Part shown: positions 1,249 through 64,000 of the stretch, piece by piece | How positions within the stretch are numbered: position 1 is the first letter of the stretch | Layout of the letters: each line of letters begins with the position of its first letter | Origin: Spirochaetia bacterium | Lineage (GTDB): Bacteria > Spirochaetota > Spirochaetia > UBA9216 | Direction of reading: 5' to 3' | Length of the DNA stretch: 64,000 bases | Assembly (NCBI GenBank): GCA_965140585.1 | Contig: OZ223267.1 | Span: 448,001 to 512,000 of the forward strand | Translations under genes and position numbers: made by a program | The notes under the pieces: generated by a model | Told to the model about the DNA's origin: nothing | What the model saw: the letters and a program-made list of their open reading frames with translations, nothing else | The model's database searches: none

Positions 1249-1397
1249 GTTTTGAAATTGCCTTAGTATAATAATAGAATTACGAAAAAAAATAAAAAAT
1301 TTCGTTTGGGAAAAAAAAGAAGCGATATTTCTAAAAAATGTCACTATACTCTATTTTGATAATAAATATTATCGAATATTTGACATTAGAGGAAATT

Positions 1398-3785: not shown

Positions 3786-3803
3786 ATATAAGGAGAAGTA
3801 AAG

Positions 3804-4274
3804 ATGAGAGCGGAATATGCAAATCCATTTATAACCGCAGCCGTGACTACATTTAAAAAGGAGCTGGGAGTACAATTAAATCGTAATGCTTTAAATGTAA
3901 AACAGTCTCCTGTCCCTTCAAAAGATCTATCAATTATTATAGGCGTTACCGGAGCGGTTAAGGGGCAGGTGGTATATTCAATGGACGCCTATGTAGGTAT
4001 GGCTGTTGCAAAAGCAATGCTTCCGGGTAAGCTTCCTGCTGAATTAAAGAAATTAACAAACAGTGCTGTTTCAGAGCTGGCAAATATAATTACAGGCCAG
4101 GCAAGTATCATCCTGGCAGGAGAAAATGATCGGATTGATATAACTCCTCCTGCTGTTTTCAGTGGAGGGGCATCGGTTATTGACTTTTTAACACTTCAGA
4201 CAATATCTCTATCTTTCCTTTCGGAGATAGGTTCTTTTGAGATAAATATTGCGTTAACGGAGGAAGGGCTATGA
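3804..4274 (+). CDS. cheX: CheY-P phosphatase CheX
   Basis: YANPFI, IIGVTGAVKG, SAVSELANIITG (ExxN), DITPP. Confidence 0.9.
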   Translation: MRAEYANPFITAAVTTFKKELGVQLNRNALNVKQSPVPSKDLSIIIGVTGAVKGQVVYSMDAYVGMAVAKAMLPGKLPAELKKLTNSAVSELANIITGQASIILAGENDRIDITPPAVFSGGASVIDFLTLQTISLSFLSEIGSFEINIALTEEGL

Positions 4275-4627
4275 AAAAAGGACTTATAGTAGACGATGCA
4301 GCAGTGATGAGAATGCGTCTCCGGGATATTCTTTCATCAAAGTATTCGATTGTTTCAGAGGCCGAGAACGGTAGGGAAGCAATTGAACTCTATAGAAAAC
4401 ATCAGCCTGATTTTGTTACGATGGACATTTCAATGGCAGAAATGAATGGTATGGAGGCATTAAAAAATCTTCTTGCTGAATTTCCGGATGCAAAGATAAT
4501 TATGGTAAGTGCTGTAGGCCAAAAAGCGCTTGTCTTCGAGGCTCTGAGCATGGGCGCCAAGGATTTTATCATAAAACCTTTTGAAGCGGATCGTGTACTT
4601 CTTTCAATCGATCGAATATTTGGGTGA
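4271..4627 (+). CDS. cheY: Single-domain response regulator CheY
   Basis: IVDD, TMDISM phospho-Asp, VSA, IKPF; ATGA overlap with cheX. Confidence 0.9.
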   Translation: MKKGLIVDDAAVMRMRLRDILSSKYSIVSEAENGREAIELYRKHQPDFVTMDISMAEMNGMEALKNLLAEFPDAKIIMVSAVGQKALVFEALSMGAKDFIIKPFEADRVLLSIDRIFG

Positions 4628-4653
4628 TGAACGTTAAATTTCTAAAAAGAATC

Positions 4654-4688
4654 ATACCATCTTAGCAAACAAATTGCTTGGATGGTAT
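4654..4688 (+). terminator. Hairpin after cheY (putative terminator)
   Basis: ataccatc-tt-agcaa / ttgct-tg-gatggtat inverted repeat; no clear U-tract. Confidence 0.4.
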
Positions 4689-4785
4689 AAATGCTGCGAT
4701 GAATACCATTAATCGGGTAGAAACTTTCTTTACGTATCTTTCTCCAATATAATTTTAGTTAATAACATCTTTTAGCGGAGAAAGA

Positions 4786-46767: not shown

Positions 46768-47754
46768 TTGAATATGAAGTTTATTCTCCGGAAACTGTTA
46801 GCATCTTTGTTAACGCTTCTGGTCATTACATTCGTAAATTTTGTAATTTTCCGAATGGCGCCCGGCGATCCTGTCAGGCTGATGTTTAAGGACCCCAGAG
46901 TTTCAATTGAAGATATCGAGGCTATGAAAGTAAAATTCGGACTCGATAAACCTATTCCCGGTCAGTATGTCGACTATATGAAAAACCTGCTTAAAGGAGA
47001 TATGGGAATCTCATTTTGGCAGAAGAAACCAGTATCAGAAGTTATTGCTGCACGAATACCGCAGACTCTTATGCTGATAGGGACAGCCTTGTTTCTTGCT
47101 GTTGTGATAGGAACACTTTTCGGTGCAATTGCCGGATGGAAAGGAGGTTCGAGGACAGACTCGACGATTGTCGGTGTCTCGATGACTCTGTATTCGGTTC
47201 CAAGTTTCGCATTCGGTATTCTTCTGATGCTGGGGCTTGCGTATCATCTTGCAATTTTCCCGCTGGGCGGAATCGAGACGCCTGCTTCCGGTTATTCCGG
47301 AATACGCCGTTGGCTTGATATTGCCTGGCATATGGTTCTTCCATCATTCTCGATTGTTCTATGGTATATCGGTCAGTATATAATCATCACAAGATCGTCC
47401 ATGAAGGATGTTTTAAGTCAGCCCTTTATTATGACGGCAAGGTCAAAGGGTGTTCGTGAAAAAGTTATCCTCAGCAAGCATGCCCTGAGAAATGCCTTCC
47501 TTCCGCTCATTACTATAACCGGTGTAAATATTGCCTTTATGACCGGCGGTATTATTGAGGCAGAAACTGTATTTTCATGGCCCGGCCTTGGACGACTGCT
47601 TTATGACGCAGTTATGAAGCGTGATTATCCGCTTCTGCAGGGATGTTTTATGGTTTTCGCAATCGCAGTCGTTGTACTGAACTTTGCAGTCGATTTGCTT
47701 TACAGCAGAGTTGATCCACGCGTTAGAATCGGAGGTATGAGCGATGAACATTAA
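46768..47754 (+). CDS. Peptide/nickel ABC permease (DppB/OppB-like)
   Basis: PGDP, FGLDKP, GDMGIS, TARSKG, HALRNA, ETVFSWPGLG, RDYP. Confidence 0.92.
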   Translation: MNMKFILRKLLASLLTLLVITFVNFVIFRMAPGDPVRLMFKDPRVSIEDIEAMKVKFGLDKPIPGQYVDYMKNLLKGDMGISFWQKKPVSEVIAARIPQTLMLIGTALFLAVVIGTLFGAIAGWKGGSRTDSTIVGVSMTLYSVPSFAFGILLMLGLAYHLAIFPLGGIETPASGYSGIRRWLDIAWHMVLPSFSIVLWYIGQYIIITRSSMKDVLSQPFIMTARSKGVREKVILSKHALRNAFLPLITITGVNIAFMTGGIIEAETVFSWPGLGRLLYDAVMKRDYPLLQGCFMVFAIAVVVLNFAVDLLYSRVDPRVRIGGMSDEH

Positions 47755-48625
47755 AAGTTATAAACTGGAGAAGGCAAGAAACTTTGCGCAGATGTTCTTT
47801 TCTCATCGAATGGGGCTCTGGGGATTTATAATTTTCAGTCTGTTTATTGTGATGGCTCTTTTTGCCCCTTTTCTTGGAACTGTCGATCCTCACCGGTCGG
47901 GAGATGTTGATAAAATCCTGATCAGTCCCAATGCGGGGGCATGGCTGGGAACAGATGACCTTGCACGCGATGTCTGGAGCCAGGTTATCTACGGCAGCCG
48001 CATATCGCTCACAATCGGTTTTATTACAGCAATTATTACTGTGATCACGGGGACTATAGTAGGTATGATTGCAGGCTTCAAAGGCGGAGTTGTAGATGAA
48101 ATACTTATGAGGGTTGTAGACTTCTTTATGATGCTTCCCCAGCTCCCGCTTATGATTGTGCTTGCCGCAGTTATGGGTGCAAGTATATGGAATATAGTCA
48201 TCGTAATCAGTATTGTCAGCTGGCCGTCAACAGCAAGACTTGTACGCTCTCAGGTTCTTTCTCTTAAGGAACGGCCCTTTGTTGAAGCGGCAAGATGTCT
48301 AGGCGCAGGTGATGCAACCATGATGCTGCGTGAGATTCTTCCTAATGTTATCCCGGTTATGTTCGCTCAGGCGGTTCTGATGGTTACAGAAACTATCTAT
48401 GCTGAAGCAGTTCTGAGCTTTCTCGGGCTTGGCGATCCAACCAAGATAAGCTGGGGAACAATGCTGCATTTCTGTTTTGAGTCAGGAGCCATGGCAAGAG
48501 CTGTATGGTGGGTACTTCCACCGATTGCATGTATTGTAGGCTTGATAATCAGTTTTTCTTTTCTGGGGACCTCGGTTACAGATATTCTGACACCCGGTTA
48601 TAAAGAGAAAATGGGATATTCGTGA
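47744..48625 (+). CDS. Peptide/nickel ABC permease (DppC/OppC-like)
   Basis: LGTDDLARD, YGSRISL, FVEAARCLGA, ILPN, LSFLGLG. Confidence 0.92.
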   Translation: MNIKSYKLEKARNFAQMFFSHRMGLWGFIIFSLFIVMALFAPFLGTVDPHRSGDVDKILISPNAGAWLGTDDLARDVWSQVIYGSRISLTIGFITAIITVITGTIVGMIAGFKGGVVDEILMRVVDFFMMLPQLPLMIVLAAVMGASIWNIVIVISIVSWPSTARLVRSQVLSLKERPFVEAARCLGAGDATMMLREILPNVIPVMFAQAVLMVTETIYAEAVLSFLGLGDPTKISWGTMLHFCFESGAMARAVWWVLPPIACIVGLIISFSFLGTSVTDILTPGYKEKMGYS

Positions 48626-48634
48626 GGTACCTGA

Positions 48635-49594
48635 ATGAACTTACTTGAAGTAAAAGACCTTTGTGTTGACTATGAAATGAAAAAAGGAACTGCAAGGGCT
48701 GTAAATAATGTTAATTTTGAATTGAAGAAGGGTGAAACCTTCGGACTGATTGGAGAATCCGGTTGTGGTAAGACAACAACCGCTATGGCTCTGATGGGCT
48801 TTGTTTCTCCTCCCGGAAGAATAAGCCAGGGGTCGGTCGAGTTTAAAGGCGAAGATATTAGAACTTATTCAAAGGAAAAGATGCGTCAGCTGCGAGGTAA
48901 TTCTATCTCCATAGTCAGGCAGGAAGCTCAGAACGCTCTGAATCCAGTATTAACTATCGGTGATCAGATTGCAGAGGTTTTGAAGGAACATGGTATTACC
49001 AAACAGTCTGAAGTCGACGCAAGGGTGAAAAAGCAGCTTGAGATGGTCGGTATTACACCTGATCGAAAAAACAGTTATCCCTTTGAGTTCAGCGGCGGAA
49101 TGAGACAGAGGGTAATGATTGCTCTTGCAGCTATATGTGAGCCTGATCTGATGATACTTGACGAGCCTATAACCGGTCTGGATGTAATTGTTCAGCGACA
49201 GCTTCTGACTCTGCTTACAGACCTTAGAAAGAAGATGAATCTTACAGCACTGCTGATTGCCCATGACCTTGCAGTTATTGCTGAGATGTGTGACAGGGTT
49301 GCTGTTATGTACGGCGGTTATATTGTAGAAAATTCTGAAGTGGCAAAACTCTATGAAGATCCCCAGCATCCGTACAGTAAGGCTCTTATTGAGTCATATC
49401 CGAAGATAACCGGAGAGAAGAAGGAACTTAAGAGTATTCCTGGCGCACCTCCAAAGCTGCTTGAGAAGCCGGACGGATGTCTTTTTGCGGACAGATGTCC
49501 TCAGGCCATGCCTGTCTGCCGGAAAACTGTACCTGAGCTTATTGATGTAGACGGCAGCCAAGTTAGATGCCATCTGTATGGAGGAGAGAAATGA
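48635..49594 (+). CDS. Peptide ABC ATPase (DppD-like)
   Basis: GESGCGKT, FSGGMRQR, HPY, C-terminal Cys motif. Confidence 0.92.
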   Translation: MNLLEVKDLCVDYEMKKGTARAVNNVNFELKKGETFGLIGESGCGKTTTAMALMGFVSPPGRISQGSVEFKGEDIRTYSKEKMRQLRGNSISIVRQEAQNALNPVLTIGDQIAEVLKEHGITKQSEVDARVKKQLEMVGITPDRKNSYPFEFSGGMRQRVMIALAAICEPDLMILDEPITGLDVIVQRQLLTLLTDLRKKMNLTALLIAHDLAVIAEMCDRVAVMYGGYIVENSEVAKLYEDPQHPYSKALIESYPKITGEKKELKSIPGAPPKLLEKPDGCLFADRCPQAMPVCRKTVPELIDVDGSQVRCHLYGGEK

Positions 49595-50598
49595 GCGACG
49601 CAGTGAATATACTTGAGGTCCGAGACCTGAAAAAATATTTCCCGCTGAAAAAAGATAATATTTTTTCGAAAAAGCCGCGAAAGATACTCAAGGCTGTAGA
49701 CGGGCTTAACTTTTCCGTAGGAAAGGGTGAAATCCTTGGGTTCGTCGGAGAGTCAGGCTGCGGTAAATCAACAATGAGCCGTTCGATAATACAGCTTATA
49801 CAGCCGACATCCGGTAATGTGATACATGACGGAGTTGATCTAACAACACTGTCAAAGCCGGAAATGAGAGCTCGGAGAAAATGTATACAGATGATCTTTC
49901 AGGATCCTTTCGGCTCTCTTAATCCAAGGAGATCTGTATCAGAAACGCTCCGGATGGTTTTGAAAATTCATGATGTATGCAAGACTCTTGAAGAAGAGGA
50001 TCAGCTGATACATAATGTTCTTGAAGAAGTAGGGCTTACCCCGGTTGAATCCTTCTGGGACAAATTTCCGGCCATGATGAGCGGAGGTCAGCTTCAGCGT
50101 GTGAGTATGGCGAGGGTTCTGATGCTCAGACCTGATTTTATAATAGCAGATGAACCGGTATCTATGCTTGATGTTTCAGTACGTATCGGCGTTCTGGATC
50201 TGCTTCTCAGAATGAGGAAGAAGTACGATATATCATTCATCTATATTACTCATGACCTTGCCACAGCCAGGTACGTTTGTGACAGAATTGCGATTATGTA
50301 TCTCGGGAGGATTGTTGAGATGGGTCCGACAGAAGAGATTCTGCATAACCCGCAGCATCCATATACTAAGGCACTCATAGCCGCGGTTCCCGAACCGGAT
50401 CCAAGACGTGAAAAGCTGGAACTTCCGATCAAGGAATGGACCAAGGATTCTTATATAGAGAATGATAATGCCTGTCTGTTCTTTCCAAGGTGTCCTGAAG
50501 GCCGTGAAGTCTGCCGTCATAAAAAGCCTGTGATGATTGATATTGTAAAAGGGCATACTGCTGCCTGTCATGCCGTGCATAAAGACAGTGAGTATTGA
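49591..50598 (+). CDS. Peptide ABC ATPase (DppF-like)
   Basis: KAVDG, GESGCGKS, SGGQLQR, DEPVSMLDVS, HPYT. Confidence 0.92.
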   Translation: MSDAVNILEVRDLKKYFPLKKDNIFSKKPRKILKAVDGLNFSVGKGEILGFVGESGCGKSTMSRSIIQLIQPTSGNVIHDGVDLTTLSKPEMRARRKCIQMIFQDPFGSLNPRRSVSETLRMVLKIHDVCKTLEEEDQLIHNVLEEVGLTPVESFWDKFPAMMSGGQLQRVSMARVLMLRPDFIIADEPVSMLDVSVRIGVLDLLLRMRKKYDISFIYITHDLATARYVCDRIAIMYLGRIVEMGPTEEILHNPQHPYTKALIAAVPEPDPRREKLELPIKEWTKDSYIENDNACLFFPRCPEGREVCRHKKPVMIDIVKGHTAACHAVHKDSEY

Positions 50599-52434: not shown

Positions 52435-54015
52435 ATGGGTATTGGAACATATGAACAGTACAAAGAACGACTTCTCAAGATGAAGCCAAATGTATATTTA
52501 CATGGTGAGAAAGTAGACAGATCAGGCGATTGGATTGACGGCGGAACATACGTTATGAAGCAGACCTATGACTGCGCTAACGATCCTGACTACGAAGATC
52601 TCTGTACTGCTACTTCACATCTTACAGGTGAAAAAATCAGCCGATGGACTCACATTCACAGAACCCAGGATGACCTTTTTAAAAAGCAGCTCATGACCAG
52701 GATTATGTGTCACAGAGTTGGCGGATGTACACAGAGATGTATGGGTACAGATGCTCTCAACGCTCTTGCTGTTGTTACCTATGATATGGATCAGGCTTGC
52801 GGAACTAAGTACCACGAGAGATTCAACAAGTACCTTGAGTACTCACAGAAGAACGACCTTGTTGCCAACTGTGCTCAGACTGATGTTAAGGGTTCAAGAA
52901 ATCCGAAATACAAGAGAGCTCACATGCAGCCGGATCCTGACCAGTTCGTACACGTTGTAGAAACAAACGTAGATGGTATCGGTCTTGACGGAAAGCCCTG
53001 TAAGGGTATGATCGTTCGCGGTGCAAAGATTTGTAACTCAAACGCTCCTTATGTTGATGAAATCATCGTTACTCCTACCAAGTTCATGGGTTCAGGTGAC
53101 GAAGCATACGCTTGTGCATTTGCTCTTCCTGCCGACTGGCCCGGCGTTAAGCTCATGGCTCTTCCCGGAAAGCATCACAAGAGAAAGCATATCGAAGCTC
53201 CTTTTGCACTCGTAGGTGATGTTGAATCACTCACAATCTTCGATGATACTTTCGTACCTGAAGACAGAATCTTCATGAACGGTCTTGATCAGCCGGATGT
53301 TCTTCAGTATGCAGGTTACCTTGCCCTGATGTTCGCTCACTTCCACAGACACTCATACACCGGTTGTAAGACTGCTGTATCAGAAGTTATTGCAGCACAG
53401 GCAGCACTTGTTGCAGACGTTAACGACATTGCTAAAGAGCACCACGTAAGAGAGAAGATCTCTGACATCGTTGGTACTGCAGAGCTTGTTTTCGCAGCAG
53501 GTCAGGCAGCAGCTCTCAGAGCTGTTCAGTTCCCCAACGGTTCATGGGTACCTGATGAGGTTCTTACCAACGCTGGTAGAAAGCTTGCAGGTCAGAAGAT
53601 TTACCACGAGTACGAAACTCTTGCAGACCTTACAGGCGGTATTTCTGCATCACTTCCTACAGAAGAATCATTCTATGATCCTGAAACTGCAGAACTCTGT
53701 AACAAGTACATCATGAGAAATCCTGCTTACACAGCAGAAGAAACTCACAGAGTTATGAGAATGATGGAGAACAAGCTTTGTGACGCTTTCGAAGGTGCAC
53801 AGGCTGTAGCCGGTGTTCACGGCGGTGGTTCACCTCTTATGGAAACTATCGTTATGATGGCAAGATACGATCTCGAAGCTCTTAAAGATATTGCAAAATA
53901 CCTTGCAGGTTTCGAAGGCTACGAGAAGTGCCCGAGATACGAAAGAGCAACTGCTACACCAAGAGCTATGCTTGACAGATTCAGAAAAACTGAAATGGGA
54001 AAGAAAGAAGCGTAA
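52435..54015 (+). CDS. 4-hydroxybutyryl-CoA dehydratase (AbfD)-like FAD/[4Fe-4S] protein (HpaB/AbfD family)
   Basis: GGCTQRCMGTD, AQTDVKG.R, VRGAK, HRHSYTGCK, HGGGSP; Cys3-His cluster ligands retained. Confidence 0.8.
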   Translation: MGIGTYEQYKERLLKMKPNVYLHGEKVDRSGDWIDGGTYVMKQTYDCANDPDYEDLCTATSHLTGEKISRWTHIHRTQDDLFKKQLMTRIMCHRVGGCTQRCMGTDALNALAVVTYDMDQACGTKYHERFNKYLEYSQKNDLVANCAQTDVKGSRNPKYKRAHMQPDPDQFVHVVETNVDGIGLDGKPCKGMIVRGAKICNSNAPYVDEIIVTPTKFMGSGDEAYACAFALPADWPGVKLMALPGKHHKRKHIEAPFALVGDVESLTIFDDTFVPEDRIFMNGLDQPDVLQYAGYLALMFAHFHRHSYTGCKTAVSEVIAAQAALVADVNDIAKEHHVREKISDIVGTAELVFAAGQAAALRAVQFPNGSWVPDEVLTNAGRKLAGQKIYHEYETLADLTGGISASLPTEESFYDPETAELCNKYIMRNPAYTAEETHRVMRMMENKLCDAFEGAQAVAGVHGGGSPLMETIVMMARYDLEALKDIAKYLAGFEGYEKCPRYERATATPRAMLDRFRKTEMGKKEA

Positions 54016-54037: not shown

Positions 54038-54074
54038 AAAGGCCCTGTGAAGTTCTGCTTTGCGGGGCTTTTTT
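54038..54074. terminator. Bidirectional terminator between convergent genes
   Basis: aaaggccctgtgaag / ctttgcggggcttttt. Confidence 0.65.
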
Positions 54075-54780
54075 ATTCATCATATATTGAGACTATACCA
54101 TTAATGGTTTTTTTAAGGGATTCCTGAAAGGTGCTGACTGCGCCTTTGGTATCCTTTTCTTTTATGTTTTTCACAAGTTCGAGGGTGTTCTTGTACAGCT
54201 GCTCATTTCCATGCAGGGTAAAATACTTTTCCCACAACATGGTAGAGAGCTCCTTGAAAGAGTAGAAGATGACCGGAAGCATTGTGTTGCCTGAAAGAAT
54301 ACAGAGTTCCTGATGGAATATGAAAATTGTTTCAGCAGAGTTTTCAGGGGTTCTGGATTTTCCAAAATTATCCGCCAGCTGCATCAGCACTCCTATATCA
54401 GATTCTGATACCGCAGGTACAAGCAGCTCAAGCGCCAGTGTCTCGAAGACCAGCCTGATCTCGAGAAGTGATTTCATTTCAGTTTTTTTCAGATTGCCGC
54501 CGTTGTACCGCAGAATGGCCATCAGAGTTTCAACAGTTCCCCGCCTGTGGTAGTCAGCTACAAATGCTCCGATTCTCGGCTTTATTTCAACAAAGCCGAT
54601 TCCGGCGAGTTCTGTAAGTCCTGAATTAACTACGGCGCGGCTGACGCCCATTTTCTCAGCCAGTTCTCTCTCAGGGGGAAGTCTGTCGCCTATACTTAGT
54701 TTTCCTGAAATTATCATATTCTCAATTTCTCTTACAAAAAGATCCTTTAATGAAGGGGAGGATAGTCTTGAAAACTCCAT
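54073..54780 (-). CDS. GntR/FadR-family regulator
   Basis: GDRLPPERELAEKMGVSR, EIRL..E, FH......SGN; AAGGAG RBS before ATG 54780. Confidence 0.9.
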   Translation of the reverse strand: MEFSRLSSPSLKDLFVREIENMIISGKLSIGDRLPPERELAEKMGVSRAVVNSGLTELAGIGFVEIKPRIGAFVADYHRRGTVETLMAILRYNGGNLKKTEMKSLLEIRLVFETLALELLVPAVSESDIGVLMQLADNFGKSRTPENSAETIFIFHQELCILSGNTMLPVIFYSFKELSTMLWEKYFTLHGNEQLYKNTLELVKNIKEKDTKGAVSTFQESLKKTINGIVSIYDE

Positions 54781-54796
54781 AAAAATGCTCCTTGTA

Positions 54797-54809
54797 CTGG
54801 TACAACCAG
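54797..54809. promoter_or_regulatory. FadR-type operator CTGGTACAACCAG
   Basis: TGGT-N3-ACCA palindrome just upstream of gntR. Confidence 0.65.
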
Positions 54810-54890
54810 AAACCAAAAAATAATTATATTATGTAAAAATCTATAAATCAATATATTTAAACAAAATAAAATTCTATAGATAAATATTTA

Positions 54891-54919
54891 TTGACAATAC
54901 CAGAATGTAGATTTAGACT
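54891..54919 (+). promoter_or_regulatory. sigma70 promoter of the hypB/hypA operon
   Basis: TTGACA-17 bp-TAGACT. Confidence 0.6.
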
Positions 54920-54945: not shown

Positions 54946-55620
54946 ATGAATATTACCTTCTCTATGCTGCTGACTGCAGCATTCACAGCGGGAATACTGC
55001 ATACTCTGACAGGTCCCGATCATTACATCCCGTTTATTGTCCTATCAAGTTCCGGAAACTGGTCTATGAAGAAAACGCTCGGCATGACTTTAATCTGTGG
55101 ACTGGGGCACATTCTTTCAGCAGTCCTCGTTGCATATGGAGCACTGAAAATCAGTTCAATCATGCTAAGCCTTGAAACGATTGAAGCAATCCGAGGCGGT
55201 TTTGCAGCCTGGGCATTGACTGTCTTCGGGTTTACCTATGCGCTTTGGGGACTTAGAAAGATTATATCAGGAAGAAAAGCTGTGAAGGAACATACTGAGA
55301 ATGTTGGACAAAACAGCAATTATGGTAAAAAGCAGTCTGTACTTGGCTGGACGCTTTTTCTAATCTTTGTCTTCGGGCCCTGTGAACCTCTCATTCCCTT
55401 CATCCTTTTTCCGGAAACTTCAGTATCAGTCAATCAGATTATTGCTGTAACTTCAGTTTTCGGTGCAGCAACCCTGCTCACAATGCTTACAGTAGTAACA
55501 TTTGCAACAGCAGGTTTAAAAAGATTTCCGCTGCATAATTTTTTCAGCCGCTTCGGACATACTCTTGCCGGCAGTATTGTAGGCTGCTGCGGACTTGCTA
55601 TGACCTTTCTTGGACTTTAG
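54946..55620 (+). CDS. UreH/NiCoT-like (DsbD_2/TauE-like) putative nickel permease
   Basis: LHTLTGPDHY, GLGH, GPCEP; about 6 TM helices. Confidence 0.7.
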   Translation: MNITFSMLLTAAFTAGILHTLTGPDHYIPFIVLSSSGNWSMKKTLGMTLICGLGHILSAVLVAYGALKISSIMLSLETIEAIRGGFAAWALTVFGFTYALWGLRKIISGRKAVKEHTENVGQNSNYGKKQSVLGWTLFLIFVFGPCEPLIPFILFPETSVSVNQIIAVTSVFGAATLLTMLTVVTFATAGLKRFPLHNFFSRFGHTLAGSIVGCCGLAMTFLGL

Positions 55621-55641
55621 TAAGGCTTAAGGAGTACGACA

Positions 55642-56313
55642 ATGGATAAATACAAGGTTATAGAAATAAAAAAAAATGTTTTTGAAAGCAACGATAATGA
55701 AGCTGCAAAGCTCAGAGCAGGTCTAAAAAAAGACGGGGTTTTCCTTCTTAACCTGATGTCTTCACCTGGATCCGGAAAAACTACTACAGTGATGCAGACA
55801 ATAGAAAAACTAAGAGCCAGTTTGAATATTCGCGTACTGGAGGCTGACCTTGATTCTGATGTTGATGCTGCAACTGTTCACAGTTCAGGGGTCAAGGTTC
55901 TTCAGCTTCATTCAGGCGGAATGTGTCATTTGAATGCAGATATGGTCAGACAGGGGCTGACTGAACTGGGCACAGAGGATACAGACCTTGTTATCCTGGA
56001 GAATATTGGAAATCTGATATGTACTGCAGAGTTTGATACAGGAGCCGCAAAAAACGCAATGATACTCAGTGTGCCGGAAGGTGATGACAAGCCGCTGAAA
56101 TATCCAGCGATGTTCAGAATGACTGATGTTCTTATAGTTAACAAGATTGATGCAATGGAATTCTTTGATTTTAATCTTGAGCGGCTTGAAGGATATGTGA
56201 GGAAACTGAATCAGGATGTGAAGATATTTCCCGTATCCGCGAAGACGGGTGAAGGCATTGATGCCTGGACTGCCTGGCTAAAAAATGAAGTTGAACTTTG
56301 GAGGAAATCCTGA
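55642..56313 (+). CDS. hypB: Nickel-insertion GTPase HypB
   Basis: SSPGSGKTT, GGMCHL, ENIGNLIC, SVPEGDDKPLKYP, NKID, SAKTGEG. Confidence 0.93.
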   Translation: MDKYKVIEIKKNVFESNDNEAAKLRAGLKKDGVFLLNLMSSPGSGKTTTVMQTIEKLRASLNIRVLEADLDSDVDAATVHSSGVKVLQLHSGGMCHLNADMVRQGLTELGTEDTDLVILENIGNLICTAEFDTGAAKNAMILSVPEGDDKPLKYPAMFRMTDVLIVNKIDAMEFFDFNLERLEGYVRKLNQDVKIFPVSAKTGEGIDAWTAWLKNEVELWRKS

Positions 56314-59003
56314 TGGACTACAGAGAAAAGATTCTCGATCTTGCAAATCATATAAACAGAACAAAGAAAGGCTCTTCAAGGGCAATTAAACCAGGAGATC
56401 CTGAATACATGATTCTGGAACCTGTTGTTACTGATGACATGGCTGAGGCTGCTATGTGCCTTGAGCTGCGGAAACCTAAAAGTGCAGTCGAAGTTGCATT
56501 GCTCTGCGGCAGGGATTCTGCTGATACTTCATCACTGCTTTGGGAACTTGCAATGGCCGGAGTCTGTTTTGTAAATGAAATAGACGGCATTGACAAGTAC
56601 TGGCTTGAAACCTGGATTCCGGGTGTCATGGAAATGATGACCAACAATAAAGAGAATGTCGCCAGATTTCCGCAGATAGCTGAAGCTTTCGAGGCTTACG
56701 GCCGGGTTCGCGGGCCTCAGTCGGCAGGAAATTTTCCGGTTGGTGTAGGTCTAATGCGGGTTATTCCAATCGAACGCTCTATTGAAGGTGAGACTCGCAA
56801 GGCCTCCTATGAGGAAGTTTCGAAATACCTGAATGAAAACGACCGCTTTTCGGTTTCCGACTGTGCCTGCCGTACAGCCCGTGAGGCAATGGGTGAAGGC
56901 TGCGGCCATCTGAAAGAGGACATGTGCATACAGATGGGACATGCAGCGGAGTACTACATTCGAACTGGCCGTGGCCGTGAGATAGATCGCAACGAAGCCT
57001 TCGAAATCATCAAAAGGGCTGAAGATAATGGACTGATGCACCAGATACCCAATACCGACGGCTCGGGTAACACGCATGCTATATGCAACTGCTGCGGCTG
57101 CTCCTGTCTTTCTCTAAGAACAGCAGAGATGTTTATCAACAACGATATGGTCCGTTCAAATTATGTATCTGATGTAGATATTGATAACTGTGTGGCCTGC
57201 GGAGAATGTGTTGAAGTCTGTCCGGTAAATGCGCTTCAGCTTGGTCATAAACTCTGTTCTGAGACACCCCAGAACATCCCGGTACGTGAAACCCCCGAGG
57301 TCACAGAATGGGGACCTGAAAAGTGGAATCCTGATTACCGCATAAACAGGCAGGTCGTTCTTGAATCGGGAACCAGTCCCTGCAAGGCTGAATGCCCTGC
57401 GCATATCGGTATTCAGGGATATGTGAAGCTGGCTTCACAGGGTAAGTATACAGAGGCTCTGGAGCTAATAAAAACCGAGAATCCCTTTCCTGCTGTCTGC
57501 GGCCGTATCTGTCCTCGAAAATGCGAATCTGCGTGTACCAGGGGAGATATAGATGACCCAATTGCGATTGATGATATTAAGAAGTATATTGCCGAGAAGG
57601 ACCTTCATGCAGAAAGCAGATTTATTCCCCGAAAGCGCCACGACTATGGTAAGAAAATTGCTGTTATAGGCTCCGGTCCGGCAGGGCTTTCCTGTGCTTA
57701 CTACCTTGCGGTAGACGGTTACAAAGTTACTGTTTTTGAAAAAAACAGCAGACCCGGCGGAATGCTCACAACAGGTATTCCCTCATTCAGGCTCGAAAAG
57801 GATGTGGTAAGCGCTGAAATAGAAATTATTAAAGAACTCGGCGTAGAAATCCGCTGCGGGGTGGATGTCGGAAAAGACGTTTCAATTGCCGGACTTAGAA
57901 AAGATGGATTTGAAGCCTTCTATCTTGCAATCGGTGCACAGTCGGGAAGAGTCCTTGGAATTGAAGGTGAGGACGCTGAAGGTGTCATTACCGGAGTTGA
58001 TTTTCTGCTGAATGTGAGCTGTGGGACTCTGAATGATTTCACAGGCAGAACCGTTGTAATAGGCGGCGGCAATGTTGCAATTGATGTAGCCCGGACTGCT
58101 GTGAGGTCAGGGGCTGATAAAACCAAAATGTTCTGCCTTGAAAGCAGGGACCAGATGCCGGCGCTTGAAGAAGAAGTTGATGAGGCGCTTTCTGAAGGAA
58201 TAGAAATTAACAATTCCTGGGGCCCGAAACGAATAATAACCGAAAACGGAAAAGTGAAGGCTGTTGAGTTTCGAAAGTGCATATCGGTGTTTAATTCCGA
58301 TGGAAGGTTTTCACCTGTATACGACGAATCGAATACTCTTGCTGTTGAAGCTGATAATGTTCTGATTTCTGTAGGACAGGCAATTTACTGGGGGAATCTG
58401 CTTGATGGTTCCGGTGTAAAACTGAATACCAACAATACCGTGATTGCTGATCCGGAAACATGGCAGACGGGTGAGGCTGATATTTTTGCCGGAGGCGATG
58501 CCGTAACTGGACCAAAATTTGCTATTGATGCAATTGCGTTAGGCAAGGAGGGCGCTGTTTCCATCCACCGCTACGTACAGGCGGGGCAGAGTCTTGTTTA
58601 TGGACGAACTAAACGCAACTATAAACCTCTTGATAAGGAAAACCTCATCCTTGCAGGATTCGACAGAATGCCAAGGCAGAGCACATCTCATGTGAGCGGA
58701 GATGATTCGAAAAACACCTTCAGAGATCTGCGGGAAACCTTTACCGAAGAACAGGTCATCAAAGAAACTGAACGCTGTCTTGGCTGCGGGGCAGTTGTTG
58801 TTGATAAATATATGTGTGTCGGCTGCGGAGCCTGTACTCTGAAGTGCCGCTTTGATGCAATAAAACTCGAAAGAAAATACGACGCTGAAGGCCTTGTACT
58901 TACAGATATAAGACCTGCTGTTATGAAGCAGATGGTGAAGCGGAAGCTGAAAATAGCTGTTAACAAACCGATCAAGGCTGTTAAGTCGGCTCTGGGCGGG
59001 TGA
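56313..59003 (+). CDS. Multi-[4Fe-4S] NAD(P)/FAD oxidoreductase (GltD/SudA-like core with Cys-rich N-terminal domain)
   Basis: CACR, CGHL...C, ICNCCGCSC; CVACGECVEVCP; SPCKAECP...CGRICPRKCE; GSGPAG; GGGNVAID; CVGCGACTLKC; TGATG coupling to hypB. Confidence 0.88.
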   Translation: MDYREKILDLANHINRTKKGSSRAIKPGDPEYMILEPVVTDDMAEAAMCLELRKPKSAVEVALLCGRDSADTSSLLWELAMAGVCFVNEIDGIDKYWLETWIPGVMEMMTNNKENVARFPQIAEAFEAYGRVRGPQSAGNFPVGVGLMRVIPIERSIEGETRKASYEEVSKYLNENDRFSVSDCACRTAREAMGEGCGHLKEDMCIQMGHAAEYYIRTGRGREIDRNEAFEIIKRAEDNGLMHQIPNTDGSGNTHAICNCCGCSCLSLRTAEMFINNDMVRSNYVSDVDIDNCVACGECVEVCPVNALQLGHKLCSETPQNIPVRETPEVTEWGPEKWNPDYRINRQVVLESGTSPCKAECPAHIGIQGYVKLASQGKYTEALELIKTENPFPAVCGRICPRKCESACTRGDIDDPIAIDDIKKYIAEKDLHAESRFIPRKRHDYGKKIAVIGSGPAGLSCAYYLAVDGYKVTVFEKNSRPGGMLTTGIPSFRLEKDVVSAEIEIIKELGVEIRCGVDVGKDVSIAGLRKDGFEAFYLAIGAQSGRVLGIEGEDAEGVITGVDFLLNVSCGTLNDFTGRTVVIGGGNVAIDVARTAVRSGADKTKMFCLESRDQMPALEEEVDEALSEGIEINNSWGPKRIITENGKVKAVEFRKCISVFNSDGRFSPVYDESNTLAVEADNVLISVGQAIYWGNLLDGSGVKLNTNNTVIADPETWQTGEADIFAGGDAVTGPKFAIDAIALGKEGAVSIHRYVQAGQSLVYGRTKRNYKPLDKENLILAGFDRMPRQSTSHVSGDDSKNTFRDLRETFTEEQVIKETERCLGCGAVVVDKYMCVGCGACTLKCRFDAIKLERKYDAEGLVLTDIRPAVMKQMVKRKLKIAVNKPIKAVKSALGG

Positions 59004-59007
59004 TGCT

Positions 59008-59349
59008 TTGCACGAACTTGGAGTTGTAATCGAAGTGATTAAAACCGTTGAGGAAATTGCAGCGGAAAACGGGGTAAGCAGTATTGAGTCAATGGTTCTT
59101 CAGATAGGAGAACTTTCATCAATAATTCCCCGTTATGTGGAGGATTGCTACCCCGCAGCCGCCGACGGAACACTTCTCGAGAATACCAGGCTTGAAATTG
59201 AGATACTTCCCGGAAACGGGCTCTGCCGCGGCTGCGGTAAGGTATTCAACCTTGCAGCAGAGAAACACGTTTGTCCATCCTGTTCGGCTTCGGATTTTGA
59301 AATCCTCGGCGGAAAGGAATTTATGATCAAAGAAATTGTCGCCTGTTAG
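59008..59349 (+). CDS. hypA: Nickel metallochaperone HypA
   Basis: MHE Ni motif, IGELS, CRGC and CPSC Zn finger, GKEF.IKEI. Confidence 0.92.
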   Translation: MHELGVVIEVIKTVEEIAAENGVSSIESMVLQIGELSSIIPRYVEDCYPAAADGTLLENTRLEIEILPGNGLCRGCGKVFNLAAEKHVCPSCSASDFEILGGKEFMIKEIVAC

Positions 59350-59383
59350 GCCGGCATGAAAATCTATTTATATGGAGTAATAG

Positions 59384-60385
59384 ATGTTTACTTTTAATAC
59401 TGCCGCCGGTGCAAGTATCGCGTCGGCCTGGGGAATGTGGATAGTTGTATTCGCGGCCCTGTTTATTCTTAATGAACTTGCACGCAGGTGGAAGGCTGCG
59501 GGATTCACTGCCTTTGTAGTTCTGCCTGCAGTACTCACTGTTTTGTGGTTTACAGTTATGAGTGATACCACATATACCGACTGGTTTCACCTTGCAAAGG
59601 TGTACTCATCAACTGCCGGCTGTATTGGCTTCTGGCTGATACGTCACCTAAAAGGAACAAACAAACTTACAGGCAGGCAATGGAGACTTTCAGACAAGAA
59701 ACTCGCTCTGATATTTCCTCCGCTCATCCTCGCCATCAATATTCTTGAAGCATGTGTACGGGATTTTCAGATTGGTCTTCAGTACACCGGTGGAGGAATA
59801 ACTGCCGATGAGGGAGTTTATGTTCTTGGCGGTATATGGAATTATATGAACGGAATTGCAGGACTCCTTAATATTATAGCTATCACAGGATGGTTTGGTA
59901 TTGTAATCAGGCGACAGACAGACCGGGATAAAAGCCGCGACATGCTCTGGCCTGATATGCTCTGGTTCTGGATCATTGCCTATGATATCTGGAATTTCAC
60001 CTACACATACAACTGTCTGCCTCATCACGCATGGTACTGTGGATTTGCTTTACTGCTTGCACCTACACTTTGTGCTTTCACAGTTGGAAAGGGCGCCTGG
60101 CTTCAGCATCGTGCTCAGACTCTGGCTCTCTGGTGCATGTTCGCACAGACCTTTCCGGCATTCCAGGATGAGGGTATGTTTGCTGTTACCTCTACCTACA
60201 AGCCGGGGCTGTATATGTTCTGGGGAGTTCTTTCGCTTGCAGTTAACATTGCAGTAATTGTTTATATGCTTATCAGGGTTAAGAAAACCGGACGCAATCC
60301 ATACAAAGGTGAATTGTACACCGATAACCCCAAGTATCTTGAAGTTAAGGCGCTTGCAGAAGAACCGGCAGGTGCGGCTTTATAA
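59384..60385 (+). CDS. Polytopic membrane protein (DUF5692-like)
   Basis: About 8 TM; WFHLAKVYS, PPLILAINILEA..RDF, WPDM...WIIAYDIWN, WLQHRAQTL. Confidence 0.7.
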   Translation: MFTFNTAAGASIASAWGMWIVVFAALFILNELARRWKAAGFTAFVVLPAVLTVLWFTVMSDTTYTDWFHLAKVYSSTAGCIGFWLIRHLKGTNKLTGRQWRLSDKKLALIFPPLILAINILEACVRDFQIGLQYTGGGITADEGVYVLGGIWNYMNGIAGLLNIIAITGWFGIVIRRQTDRDKSRDMLWPDMLWFWIIAYDIWNFTYTYNCLPHHAWYCGFALLLAPTLCAFTVGKGAWLQHRAQTLALWCMFAQTFPAFQDEGMFAVTSTYKPGLYMFWGVLSLAVNIAVIVYMLIRVKKTGRNPYKGELYTDNPKYLEVKALAEEPAGAAL

Positions 60386-60416: not shown

Positions 60417-60439
60417 ACCGCGTCTTCGGGCGCGGTTTT
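60417..60439 (+). terminator. Terminator with cUUCGg tetraloop closing the hyp operon
   Basis: accgcgtc-ttcg-ggcgcggt-ttt. Confidence 0.75.
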
Positions 60440-60506: not shown

Positions 60507-63500
60507 ATGACAGATAAAAATGTAAAAGCTGACAGAGTAATTGCTCCAGTCGTTGCTATTGGTGCATCCGCAGGCGGTCTGAAAGAACTTGAAGTCTTTT
60601 TTAAAAACCTGACAAATTTGGACAGAGTTGCCTTTGTTGTTATTCTGCATCTTGCGCCTTCACATGAAAGCTCACTTGCTGATATTGTGAGCCGATTTAC
60701 AAATCTTAATGTTACTCAACCAACCAGGAAAACTACAGTTAAACCCGGGAATGTTTATATAATTCCTCCTAATAAAATTATTGAATTAAATGCCGGAAAA
60801 ATTTGTCTGAAACCCTATCCTGAAGATATCAAAAATAGAAAGCCTATTGATATATTTTTTAAATCTATGAGTCTTTCTCTGAAGGAAAATTCTGTAAGTG
60901 TAATTCTGAGCGGTGCCGGGACTGACGGCTCTGAAGGTATAAAGTCAGTAAGTGAACAAAACGGCCTTGTCATAGTACAGGAACCTGAAACTGCTGAATA
61001 CACGTCTATGCCTGAGACTGCGATTTCAACAGGCACTGTCGATTTTATCCTGCCTACTTCTGAGATGCCGGGTATTATTCAGGAATATCTAAAACATATC
61101 CATGATGATAAAATCCTTCATATTTCAGCAGATAATCGGCTGATATTTGATTCAATTTTCAAATATTTACTCAAGCAGACCGGAAATGATTTTTCAGGTT
61201 ATAAGATAAATACTGTATACCGTAGAATTCAGCGAAGAATGAAGTCAAAAAAAATAATTAACTTAAATGGTTATTTTGAATTTCTTAAACAGAATAGCGA
61301 AGAAACTACTTTTTTATATAAAGAACTTCTGATAAGTGTTACAAATTTTTTCAGAGATGAAGAAACTTACCACTATCTCAAAGATAATTTAATACCAAGG
61401 ATAGTTTCAAAGGCTTATACAGATACCATTAGAATATGGGTGCCTGCTTGCGCTACCGGTGAAGAGGCATATTCTATTGCAATTCTGTTTATGGAATATC
61501 TTGATAGACACGAATTCAATCTAAAATTACAGATTTTTGCTTCTGATCTGGATAAAGATGCTATTGAAAAAGCCAGAAAAGGATTATATCCGCTTAAAAT
61601 TAAAGACGATATCAGTGAAAAGATCCTGCATAAATATTTTGAGAAGATATTAACCGGATATCAGATAAAGGCAGAAGTCCGAGAACATTTGATTTTCGCC
61701 GAACAGAATTTATTATCAGATCCGCCCTATTCCAAACTTGATCTGATAAGCTGTAGAAATTTTCTTATCTATTTAAATAATGCTCAGCAAAAAAAAGTAT
61801 TATCCATTTTTCACTATGCCTTAAATCCTGACGGTTATCTGCTGCTCGGCAGATCTGAAAGTCTTGGAATGTCATCCGGTCTTTTCACAACCGAGGACAG
61901 GAAGAATAAGGTCTTCCATAAAATCAATGGACTTAAAGTGGAAAGAAATGTATGGAAATTGAATTTTGAGGAGAAAAGACACCCAGTGGGCACACATAAG
62001 GAAATAAAGACAGAGATAGCAGATTTTACAAAAGCATATATTCTTGAGAATTTAAGCCCGCCGTGTGTTGTAATAGATCCAGAAGGTGAAATGCTTTATG
62101 TTCAGGGAAGAACCGGCAAATACCTGGAAAATACTTCAGGCGTCGTCAGTACCAATATTCTGAAAAACGCCAGGGAGGGCTTAAAAATTCCGCTTACAAA
62201 TGCTATTAAGCAGGCTGGATTTGAGCAGCATGAAATATATCAAAGAAAAATTAATGTAAAAACTAACGGAAGTTATGAACTTATAGATCTGCGTGTTGCC
62301 CCTCTTAATAACGCAGACGAACATACTAAACTTTTTATAGTCTCTTTTTTTCCTTCGGTGGAAGTGCATGATGGTACAGATTCAGAAACTTTTCAATCAA
62401 ATGATGGTGTTATAGAATCTTTAAAAAAAGAGCTCGCAAATAAGGATGTGTATCTGCGTAATACGATTGAAGAACTCGAATCAACCAACGAGGAATTAAA
62501 ATCGTCCAACGAAGAAGCTCAAAGTGCTAATGAAGAGCTGCAGAGTGCCAATGAAGAACTTGAAACATCAAAGGAAGAACTGCAGTCGGTTAATGAGGAA
62601 CTTGTTACAACAAACAGTGAACTTAATCAGAGGGTGGACGAATTAAGTGAACTTAACAACAATATGAAAAATCTTCTAGCTGCAACTGATATTGCAACAA
62701 TCTTTGTTGACAGAGAACTAAAAATTTTCAAGTTTACACCTGCGGCAAAAAAGATTATCAACCTGCTTGAATCTGATATTGGCCGTTCTATTTCACAATT
62801 CACAAATACATTGAATTATAAATCACTTGCAGATGATATCAGAACAGTGTTAAGCAATCTTCGTCCTGTCGAGACTGCGGTCAAGGATCAGGAGTTAAAC
62901 CATTTCTGGATGAGGATTTCACCCTACAGAACTACCGACGAGAAGATTGAAGGGGCAGTGATAACATTTACAGATATAACAGAGAGAAAAAAGGCTGATA
63001 ATCAAATATCACTATTAAACAGTATCATAGAAAATTCTTTGGATGGTTTTGACATAGTTAATGAAAATGGGCTGCTTGAATATGTTAATAAAGCGTATCT
63101 GAAAATGTGGGGATATGATAGTCAGGATGAAATTCTCGGAACTTCGCCTGCTGGACATTGTGCCGATGAAGAAATGCCTTTGATTATTATAAACAAGGTT
63201 AATAAAGAACAGAAAGCAGATTTTGAATTTAAGGCTAAGCGTAAAGACGGCTCAACCTTTGATGTCTTTATGAGTGTTTCAACATATGAAGATATAGACG
63301 GCAAAAGATATTATGCCGGTTTTTCCCAGGATATCAGTGAAAAAGTTCAACAGAAAAAGGAATTGGATGAGTATAGAAACAATCTAGAAGAAATTCTAAA
63401 AGAAAAAAATGAACAGCTTTATAAAAGTGAAGTTATTCATAGGAAAATCTCGCTGATGTCTTCTGATTACTCTTACAGCTACAAGGTAAATGATCTCAAT

Positions 63501-64000
63501 GAATACGAGCTTGAATGGTCTTTCGGTGCGTTTGAAAAAATTACAGGATATAAACCGGCAGAAATATTAAACACAGCTTTTATCAAAAAACTTATTCATC
63601 CTGATGATTTCTCTGAAATCATCAACAGAAGAAAAAAGAATGCTGCCGGTGAAACTGCAACATCCGATGTCCGAATTATTACAAAAAGAGGAGAAATCAA
63701 ATGGATACAGGACAAATCTGTTCCTGAACTTGATGAAAAAACAGGCAAGCTTATTCGGATTATCTCTTCAGCCACGGAAATAACCAAGCGGAAAAATGTG
63801 GAAAAAGCTCTGGAGCTCAGTGAAAGAAAATTCCGGAATATAGCAGAAAACATTCCAGGGCTGGTCTATAAATACAGAGTATCCAATGCTGATGATATTA
63901 CGCTTATGTATCTTAGTAGAAGTGTTGAATCAATATTTAAAATCCCGTACAGCGAAGCAAAAAATGATATAAATCTTTTTTTGAGCCTAATTCATGAAGA
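60507..64000 (+). CDS. CheB-CheR fusion with coiled coil and multiple PAS domains, 3'-truncated (absent from ORF track)
   Basis: GASAGG, LHLAP, ILSGAGTDG (CheB); SVTNFFRD, WVPACATGEEAYS, DLISCRN (CheR); NEELQS repeats; frame consistent at points checked to window end. Confidence 0.9.
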   Translation, partial: MTDKNVKADRVIAPVVAIGASAGGLKELEVFFKNLTNLDRVAFVVILHLAPSHESSLADIVSRFTNLNVTQPTRKTTVKPGNVYIIPPNKIIELNAGKICLKPYPEDIKNRKPIDIFFKSMSLSLKENSVSVILSGAGTDGSEGIKSVSEQNGLVIVQEPETAEYTSMPETAISTGTVDFILPTSEMPGIIQEYLKHIHDDKILHISADNRLIFDSIFKYLLKQTGNDFSGYKINTVYRRIQRRMKSKKIINLNGYFEFLKQNSEETTFLYKELLISVTNFFRDEETYHYLKDNLIPRIVSKAYTDTIRIWVPACATGEEAYSIAILFMEYLDRHEFNLKLQIFASDLDKDAIEKARKGLYPLKIKDDISEKILHKYFEKILTGYQIKAEVREHLIFAEQNLLSDPPYSKLDLISCRNFLIYLNNAQQKKVLSIFHYALNPDGYLLLGRSESLGMSSGLFTTEDRKNKVFHKINGLKVERNVWKLNFEEKRHPVGTHKEIKTEIADFTKAYILENLSPPCVVIDPEGEMLYVQGRTGKYLENTSGVVSTNILKNAREGLKIPLTNAIKQAGFEQHEIYQRKINVKTNGSYELIDLRVAPLNNADEHTKLFIVSFFPSVEVHDGTDSETFQSNDGVIESLKKELANKDVYLRNTIEELESTNEELKSSNEEAQSANEELQSANEELETSKEELQSVNEELVTTNSELNQRVDELSELNNNMKNLLAATDIATIFVDRELKIFKFTPAAKKIINLLESDIGRSISQFTNTLNYKSLADDIRTVLSNLRPVETAVKDQELNHFWMRISPYRTTDEKIEGAVITFTDITERKKADNQISLLNSIIENSLDGFDIVNENGLLEYVNKAYLKMWGYDSQDEILGTSPAGHCADEEMPLIIINKVNKEQKADFEFKAKRKDGSTFDVFMSVSTYEDIDGKRYYAGFSQDISEKVQQKKELDEYRNNLEEILKEKNEQLYKSEVIHRKISLMSSDYSYSYKVNDLNEYELEWSFGAFEKITGYKPAEILNTAFIKKLIHPDDFSEIINRRKKNAAGETATSDVRIITKRGEIKWIQDKSVPELDEKTGKLIRIISSATEITKRKNVEKALELSERKFRNIAENIPGLVYKYRVSNADDITLMYLSRSVESIFKIPYSEAKNDINLFLSLIHE

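Follow-up and report, generated by a model that had tools for sequence, protein, structure and literature searches.

Few nickel enzymes are known. The chaperones HypA and HypB are described from the maturation of [NiFe]-hydrogenase and, in Helicobacter, also of urease, and clients of HypA/B-like chaperones other than hydrogenase include nickel-dependent guanidine or metformin hydrolases. Within a stretch of 64,000 nucleotides (nt) from the genome of a Spirochaetia bacterium, here called the window, an operon of five closely packed genes at positions 54946-60385, all on the plus strand, contains hypB and hypA on either side of a gene for a large Fe-S flavoprotein oxidoreductase. The assignment of this flavoprotein as the putative nickel client of HypA and HypB is well supported by comparative genomics, since the linkage is conserved, HypA co-occurs with the oxidoreductase, and the HypA proteins linked to it form a clade of their own.

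The closest described system is that of IsrA, a 901-amino-acid (aa) isoprene-induced oxidoreductase and putative isoprene reductase of Acetobacterium wieringae ISORED-2 (Kronen et al. 2023, mSystems, PMC10134865). IsrA has the same domain order as the window protein, with an unassigned N-terminal domain of ~270 aa, ferredoxin motifs near residues 290 and 850, a DPD domain II and an FAD/NAD(P)H domain, and its 'Cys6' site ('Cys6 cluster V') includes two CxC motifs, Cys180/182 and Cys254/256 (PMC10134865). The isr operon consists of five genes, including two hypA, one hypB and a ferredoxin gene, its host genome has neither [NiFe]-hydrogenase nor hypCDEF, and hypA, hypB and isrA are co-induced by isoprene (PMC10134865). 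Acetobacterium woodii is also reported to carry a homologue of IsrA (PMC10134865). Neighbour frequencies given for 988 IsrA homologues are 0.73 for HypA, 0.56 for HypB, 0.40 for DUF5692 and 0.21 for TetR (PMC10134865). In a Pelotomaculum enrichment, hypA was up 373-fold and hypB up 585-fold (10.64898/2026.02.25.708027). A preliminary description of the window had presented the sandwiched flavoprotein as part of a candidate new nickel enzyme system; it had rediscovered a published hypothesis, because Kronen et al. had already proposed IsrA as a nickel client with HypA, HypB and DUF5692 among the neighbours of its homologues (PMC10134865).

The operon compared with described systems

The genes of the operon, and the codons of a set of cysteines within the oxidoreductase, are as follows.

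54946-55620, plus strand: polytopic membrane protein of 224 aa, DsbD_2/TauE-like (Pfam DsbD_2, E 1.3e-5)
55642-56313, plus strand: hypB (TIGR00073, 234 bits against a cut-off of 121)
56313-59003, plus strand: Fe-S flavoprotein oxidoreductase of 896 aa, of the IsrA ('clade 9') kind by its Pfam domains and Cys set
56862-57107, plus strand: codons of the invariant Cys set C184, C186, C205, C258, C260 and C265, a candidate Ni/Fe-S active site
59008-59349, plus strand: hypA (PF01155, E 2e-30)
59384-60385, plus strand: DUF5692 membrane protein (PF18948, E 4.8e-118)

The gene order given in the preliminary description was confirmed on the sequence, as were the TGATG in which the stop codon of hypB overlaps the ATG of the oxidoreductase and the gap of 4 nt between the oxidoreductase stop and the hypA start. 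A GGAGG lies 8 nt 5' of the oxidoreductase ATG.

Compared by published description, the window protein resembles IsrA in its length of about 900 aa, its domain order and its set of six cysteines with two CxC motifs, and the locus resembles that of isrA in its adjacent hypA and hypB, in a frequent DUF5692 neighbour and in a host genome without [NiFe]-hydrogenase. Among the members listed for ten cluster representatives of ~900 aa, none had an Acetobacterium name. The locus differs from the isr operon in its GntR/FCD regulator, its additional DsbD_2-like membrane gene and its order hypB-oxidoreductase-hypA. The window's genome also lacks the second hypA and the separate '4Fe-4S ferredoxin' gene with the N-terminal domain (the N-domain), having one match each for HypA and for the N-domain.

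The chaperones themselves are similar to those of hydrogenase in the MHE terminus and zinc site of HypA, in a HypB of the TIGR00073 family and in the metal ligands of its G domain. The differences are that HypD, a hydrogenase large subunit and urease are absent from the window's genome and that the linked HypA proteins fall in a distinct clade. The start of hypA, TTG-CAC-GAA, encodes an M-H-E N-terminus, which is the nickel-binding end in established HypA work (as cited in PMC10134865), and the protein has a four-Cys zinc site. In the 40 cluster-linked HypAs, M1, H2, E3, C73, C76, C89 and C92 are invariant. HypB has the Cys-His...Cys residues of the G domain and no N-terminal metal-binding extension. 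Non-ATG starts are common for hypA in the oxidoreductase-linked clade; among 64 related loci, the start codon is TTG in 33, ATG in 25 and GTG in 4.

Conservation and co-occurrence of the chaperone linkage

A survey of gene neighbourhoods, as the preliminary description had suggested, found that the linkage is conserved across phyla. Close relatives were taken as the best 80 of 409 related loci, on contigs from one genome per species, in which the oxidoreductase is 66-75% identical to that of the window. As labelled, they come from Clostridia, Spirochaetes, Chloroflexi, Thermotogae, Deltaproteobacteria, Bacteriovoracaceae and Shewanella. The full-flank subset of 69 of these 80 loci, in which the flanking sequence reaches 1.5 kb or more on either side, gave these counts.

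hypA: 62/69
hypB: 62/69 (directly upstream of the oxidoreductase in 61/69)
hypA and hypB both: 60/69
exact order hypB-oxidoreductase-hypA: 54/69
neither chaperone gene nearby: 5/69

A divergent subfamily (P0137) from gut and rumen Oscillospiraceae has an N-domain 41% identical to that of the window, and hypA lies directly downstream of its oxidoreductase in 55/55 full-flank loci (77/80 overall, the three misses being on cut contigs). The conserved core of the system is thus the oxidoreductase with hypA, because this subfamily keeps hypA without hypB or DUF5692. Within the window's subclade, the identity of 66-75% is held across at least six phyla, as labelled, and is far higher than the 47-49% published for IsrA against other Acetobacterium homologues (PMC10134865).

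Two observations on individual loci may be added. In a Spirochaetia metagenome-assembled genome (MAG; locus L021), tandem oxidoreductases at 978-3653 and 3749-6418, 70% and 59% identical to that of the window, lie between one hypB and one hypA. The Oscillospiraceae-type oxidoreductase-hypA pair was also found on contigs titled Hallerella sp., Escherichia coli and Bacteroidaceae bacterium (L113, L120 and L130), which belong to 'cleanbin' isolate assemblies and whose labels look like binning or labelling errors.

The coupling of HypA, usually with HypB, to the oxidoreductase is near-exclusive as well as conserved. Genomes were drawn evenly from the phylum to give a sample of 301, of which 46 are from the window's class. 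PF00374, the large subunit of [NiFe]-hydrogenase, was matched in 107 of the 301 and HypA in 116. Within the class, PF00374 was matched in 0/46 genomes and HypA in 11/46, and these coincide one for one with the 11 genomes that have a strong N-domain match, so that HypA is found in 11/11 genomes with the oxidoreductase versus 0/35 without it. An N-domain match in a reading frame of at least 890 aa occurs in 12 genomes of the phylum sample, and all 12 have HypA. Fifteen genomes of this sample have HypA and no PF00374 match; 13 of them have the large oxidoreductase, one has a short N-domain protein only, and one has neither.

The genomes behind the 80 close loci show a similar relationship (77 were scored and two were not scored). 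In the 34 of 77 without a PF00374 match, 28 have exactly one HypA match. In the 43 with a PF00374 match, 37 have at least two HypA matches, the additional copies being in many cases neighbours of the hydrogenase hit. A tree was constructed from 40 oxidoreductase-linked and 20 hydrogenase-adjacent HypAs of the same genome set, and a single branch of length 3.59, with support of 100/100, separates the two groups; the oxidoreductase-linked HypAs form a clade of their own.

The classical clients are absent from the genome in which the operon resides. The preliminary description had reported no hydrogenase, hypCDEF, urease or CODH gene in the window, and this stands. Profile searches of the whole genome, which is 98.5% complete in 10 contigs, extend the result, with no match to PF00374, to HypD or to urease alpha; HypC, HypE and HypF were not searched separately genome-wide. 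Genome-wide, HypA and the N-domain are each matched just once. The proposed client role of the sandwiched flavoprotein thus agrees with what the genomes show, since no [NiFe]-hydrogenase is found elsewhere in this genome and HypA in the class occurs only with the oxidoreductase.

Candidates for overlooked nickel enzymes were considered and rejected. The only Prismane hit in the genome is not a CODH; it is Hcp, hydroxylamine reductase, at 873 bits. The sole Complex1_49kDa (PF00346) protein passes the NuoD model NF004739 with 371.8 bits against a cut-off of 360. An Mbx/MBS-like complex on contig 2 (~266400-275900; L087 5921-15908, minus strand) has MnhB/MbhE, NuoK-, NuoL/Mrp-, NuoH-, NuoB-, NuoC- and NuoD-like subunits, and was rejected as a hidden hydrogenase on the grounds that its NuoD-like subunit, which is this Complex1_49kDa protein, passes the NuoD model and has no C-terminal Cys pair (CxxC). 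This subunit keeps the N-terminal CxxC, and next after these genes lies a fusion of NuoI and GltD of 614 aa.

Oxidoreductase architecture, proposed mechanism and alternatives

The GltD-like NAD(P)H/FAD module and the ferredoxin clusters named in the preliminary description are present, as seen in Pfam and in phmmer searches of the Protein Data Bank (PDB). Pfam assigns Fer4 to residues 293-313, Fer4_20 to 358-436 and Pyr_redox_2 to 453-747, and ferredoxin Cys motifs are found at 293-303 and, as a C-terminal Fer4 motif, at 822-845. Residues 355-760 comprise a GltD/NfnB-like module with two [4Fe-4S] clusters together with the FAD/NAD(P)H module. Against the PDB, only residues 343-830 match, to proteins of the NfnB/GltD/DPD type (E 1e-108 to 1e-57). 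Residues 355-830 align at E 1e-64 to 1e-108 with such flavoproteins (PDB 4ylf_B and 5jca_L; fused 9bov_A, 8oh5_C and 9n5u_A), with which the window protein has in common two [4Fe-4S] clusters and the FAD and NAD(P)H sites; unlike them, it has 290 unmatched N-terminal residues, lacks an NfnA/GltB partner and is flanked by genes for nickel chaperones.

Residues 1-290 match no Pfam family, and consist of a winged-helix part and a Cys-rich domain. Residues 1-350 were modelled with confidence by AlphaFold2 (pLDDT 87.3, pTM 0.86), and the model has no fold match in the PDB at E <= 0.001 (the best in Foldseek having E 0.02). The winged-helix part alone, at approximately residues 40-100, resembles MarR/ArsR-type domains in Foldseek. 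Look-alikes of residues 1-290 in the Atlas are only 'hypothetical' and '4Fe-4S binding' clusters. The N-domain is nevertheless widespread, being carried by 1780 cluster representatives, and the homologue search scored more than 7999 relatives, so this is a very common family.

The N-domain of the window protein was aligned with 68 diverse relatives (25-58% identical) picked from 150 listed of the 1780 representatives. C184, C186, C205, C258, C260 and C265 are invariant in 69/69 of these N-domains, and C197 (61/69), H243 (62/69), C261 (54/69) and C263 (51/69) are mostly conserved. Two CxC motifs, C184-x-C186 and C258-x-C260, lie within the invariant set. Some of the aligned proteins are stand-alone proteins of ~330-400 aa, made up of the N-domain and a ferredoxin tail.

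It is on this architecture that a mechanism can be proposed. NAD(P)H would reduce FAD in the GltD/NfnB-like module, and electrons would pass through four ferredoxin-type [4Fe-4S] clusters to the Cys-rich site of the N-domain, made up of the six invariant cysteines with C197, C261, C263 and H243. The GTPase HypB, with HypA, would load nickel into this site to give a Ni-Fe-S centre, which would then reduce an unactivated substrate. Nickel as the metal, the Cys-rich site as its holder and the direction of electron flow are what we infer. An analogy, likewise drawn by Kronen et al. (PMC10134865), is offered by the A-cluster of acetyl-CoA synthase (ACS) and the C-cluster of CODH, where a Cys-rich site ends an Fe-S chain and is loaded by an NTPase chaperone. 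This is an analogy only, as no relation in sequence or fold was found and the chaperones in the window are HypA and HypB, not CooC or AcsF.

On balance we lean, by a modest degree, towards the operon encoding an oxidoreductase of the IsrA ('clade 9', putative isoprene reductase) family along with dedicated maturation factors, HypA and HypB, which would load nickel into it. Several points weigh against this. Related genomes in the samples counted above do not count independently, incomplete MAGs are numerous among them, and profile matches are not copy numbers. The same six cysteines are equally invariant in 46 short (<450 aa) stand-alone N-domain-plus-ferredoxin proteins of the alignment, and because these proteins keep them, the Cys set could be that of an ordinary Fe-S cluster and not a nickel site. 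Most stand-alone N-domain proteins in the phylum sample are not beside hypA, with two exceptions, and Kronen et al. report no HypA/HypB association for the isr ferredoxin (PMC10134865). In the P0137 subfamily, hypB lies within 5 kb in 0/55 loci, and in the 5/69 close loci counted above both chaperone genes are missing. Our search of the literature found no nickel measurement in any member of the family and no biochemical characterisation, and the 2026 preprint still treats nickel dependence as a suggestion (10.64898/2026.02.25.708027). Other likely users of nickel are present in the genome, so that the chaperones could have work even in the absence of the oxidoreductase. A prediction of the complex between the N-domain (residues 1-350) and HypA scored 0.00, which counts neither for nor against binding.

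Among other explanations, HypA, with or without HypB, might act on zinc, iron or cobalt, or HypA might be a permanent zinc-ribbon subunit or assembly factor of an all-Fe-S enzyme in which the Cys-rich site is a fifth Fe-S cluster. The stand-alone proteins, mostly without a nearby HypA, point in this direction, as does the lack of nickel measurements in the literature, and the presence of hypA in 55/55 Oscillospiraceae loci that have no hypB fits a subunit-like role. Against this stand the nickel-binding MHE, invariant in 40/40 cluster-linked HypAs, and a HypB that keeps its Cys-His...Cys and is present in 62/69 close loci; we consider this explanation fairly improbable, though it is the strongest of the competing ones. 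It is also conceivable that hypA and hypB supply nickel to enzymes elsewhere, and that their adjacency to the oxidoreductase reflects co-regulation or co-transfer. The genome has four strong matches to the LarA family (Lar_N; C7:660596, C1:135736, C6:577339 and C9:241636) and three weaker ones, which suggests several nickel-pincer-cofactor enzymes and, because these genes are present, the use of nickel elsewhere in the organism. An Opp/Nik-type ABC transporter 4 kb upstream and the loci without either chaperone gene would fit such a client, be it of the LarA family or unrecognised. The adjacency holds across phyla, however, and across two subfamilies that are only 41% identical in the N-domain; HypA in the window's class follows the oxidoreductase in 11/11 genomes and is found in 0/35 others; and the HypAs linked to the oxidoreductase belong to a clade of their own, which travels with that enzyme. 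Synthesis of the LarA cofactor uses LarB, LarC and LarE and not HypAB, a point argued too by Kronen et al. (PMC10134865). A client elsewhere is accordingly a poor prospect in our estimate.

Least probable, and in our view very unlikely, is that the nickel client is DUF5692, or a complex of DUF5692 with the flavoprotein, the latter serving only as the electron-input module. DUF5692 is inside the operon, is found in 42/69 full-flank loci, is single-copy in the window's genome and has many conserved polar residues. It lies within 5 kb in 0/55 loci of the second subfamily, however, and is missing from 27/69 close loci, with hypA retained, and its conserved residues include no His and only one Cys.

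The loading of nickel into the oxidoreductase by HypA and HypB can be taken further for the window's own subclade, whose partners are GntR/FCD and DUF5692 rather than the additional ferredoxin and the second hypA found in the isr operon. Its substrate is probably not isoprene. This subclade might represent a nickel-dependent reductase that moves horizontally and acts on a common substrate other than isoprene, with a Ni-Fe-S site that lies in a domain for which no related structure has been solved and is loaded by a non-hydrogenase lineage of HypA; we hold this tentatively, at slightly worse than an even chance. If true, it would enlarge the short list of nickel enzymes by a new class and would account for most 'orphan' hypA genes of anaerobes; for the family as a whole, binding of nickel would mean a new nickel enzyme with a new kind of active-site domain. 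As the hypothesis is already in print, the value of the window lies in the clean co-occurrence in a lineage without hydrogenase, the separate HypA clade and the core of oxidoreductase with hypA. These results sharpen a bench test and are no substitute for it.

Several families of the phylum have stand-alone N-domain-plus-ferredoxin proteins (~360-450 aa), with one to three copies in a genome. In each of the two exceptional genomes, one such copy adjoins a second hypA (G250:C31:50983-53076 and G255:C398:456-2662).

Accessory genes, regulatory signals and neighbours

Features around the operon include a regulator and several candidate signals.

54073-54816, minus strand: divergent GntR-family regulator with an FCD ligand domain (GntR 9.2e-18, FCD 3.8e-6)
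54851-54823, minus strand: divergent promoter-like site (consensus match only)
54891-54919, plus strand: promoter-like site, TTGACA-17 nt-TAGACT (10/12 consensus matches; consensus match only)
60417-60436, plus strand: terminator-like stem-loop of 8 pairs (6 GC), with a T-rich tail to 60445

The promoter and terminator of the preliminary description stand in so far as the promoter-like site lies 5' of the operon and the stem-loop with its T tail 3' of it. The number of promoter-like and terminator-like sites in the region is not above that in shuffled sequence, so only their placement speaks for them.

The first gene of the operon had been called Ni-permease-like, and this label fared less well. 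It has about six membrane spans and an H-x5-D-H in the first span, as in NiCoT/UreH/RcnA transporters, and this motif presumably corresponds to the NiCoT-type signature. Unlike those transporters it has no match to NicO/PF03824, even at E up to 10; it has no NCBIfam match, and only DsbD_2 is found. Relatives that are 40-63% identical carry automatic names split between 'sulfite exporter TauE/SafE', the name that NCBI gives them, and 'nickel/cobalt exporter/RcnA/NicO', and the other support for a nickel permease is one row of the Atlas, at rank 21. A homologue is linked to the cluster in 1/69 full-flank loci, in an Oceanispirochaeta-labelled MAG (L010) with the gene order of the window. The first gene may possibly be a nickel or cobalt transporter, and is not a conserved part of the system.

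DUF5692 is unlike the His-rich nickel carriers, having no His among its conserved residues, and its role as a nickel importer is for this reason not favoured.

The divergent regulator had been described as FadR. It is a GntR protein with an FCD domain, but its FadR_C score is below the cut-off. Its true start probably lies a few codons inside the listed TTG open reading frame (ORF). A GntR/FCD homologue lies divergently upstream in 25/69 full-flank loci. The near-palindrome TGGTACA(A/G)CCAGA(A/T)ACCA, found at the 5' end of the divergent GntR gene in the window (54797-54812) and in L010 (5483-5500), is a candidate operator, and we take it to resemble FadR-type sites.

In a clustering of the ORFs from the 80 loci, only four families recur besides the five core ones: generic ABC ATPases (21 loci), amine-oxidase-like flavoproteins (11), HTH proteins (11) and TetR (6). 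These recurrent neighbours offer no clue to the substrate.

Several other genes of the window lie near the operon. A 526-aa HpaB/4-hydroxybutyryl-CoA-dehydratase-like protein is encoded at 52435-54015 (plus strand), with 122.8 bits against a cut-off of 480 for the HpaB equivalog; as a pathway partner this HpaB/AbfD-like gene was rejected, there being no homologue in the best 80 loci. At 46768-50598 (plus strand), 4 kb upstream of the operon, lie genes for an Opp/Dpp/Nik-type ABC transporter, two for permeases and two for ATPases, and no gene for a binding protein adjoins them. This transporter could import nickel or peptides, and is not conserved beside the cluster in other loci. Directly 3' of the operon terminator, at 60507-63998 on the plus strand and continuing past the end of the window, lies a fusion protein of more than 1164 aa that combines a CheB methylesterase, a CheR methyltransferase, a coiled coil and several PAS domains.

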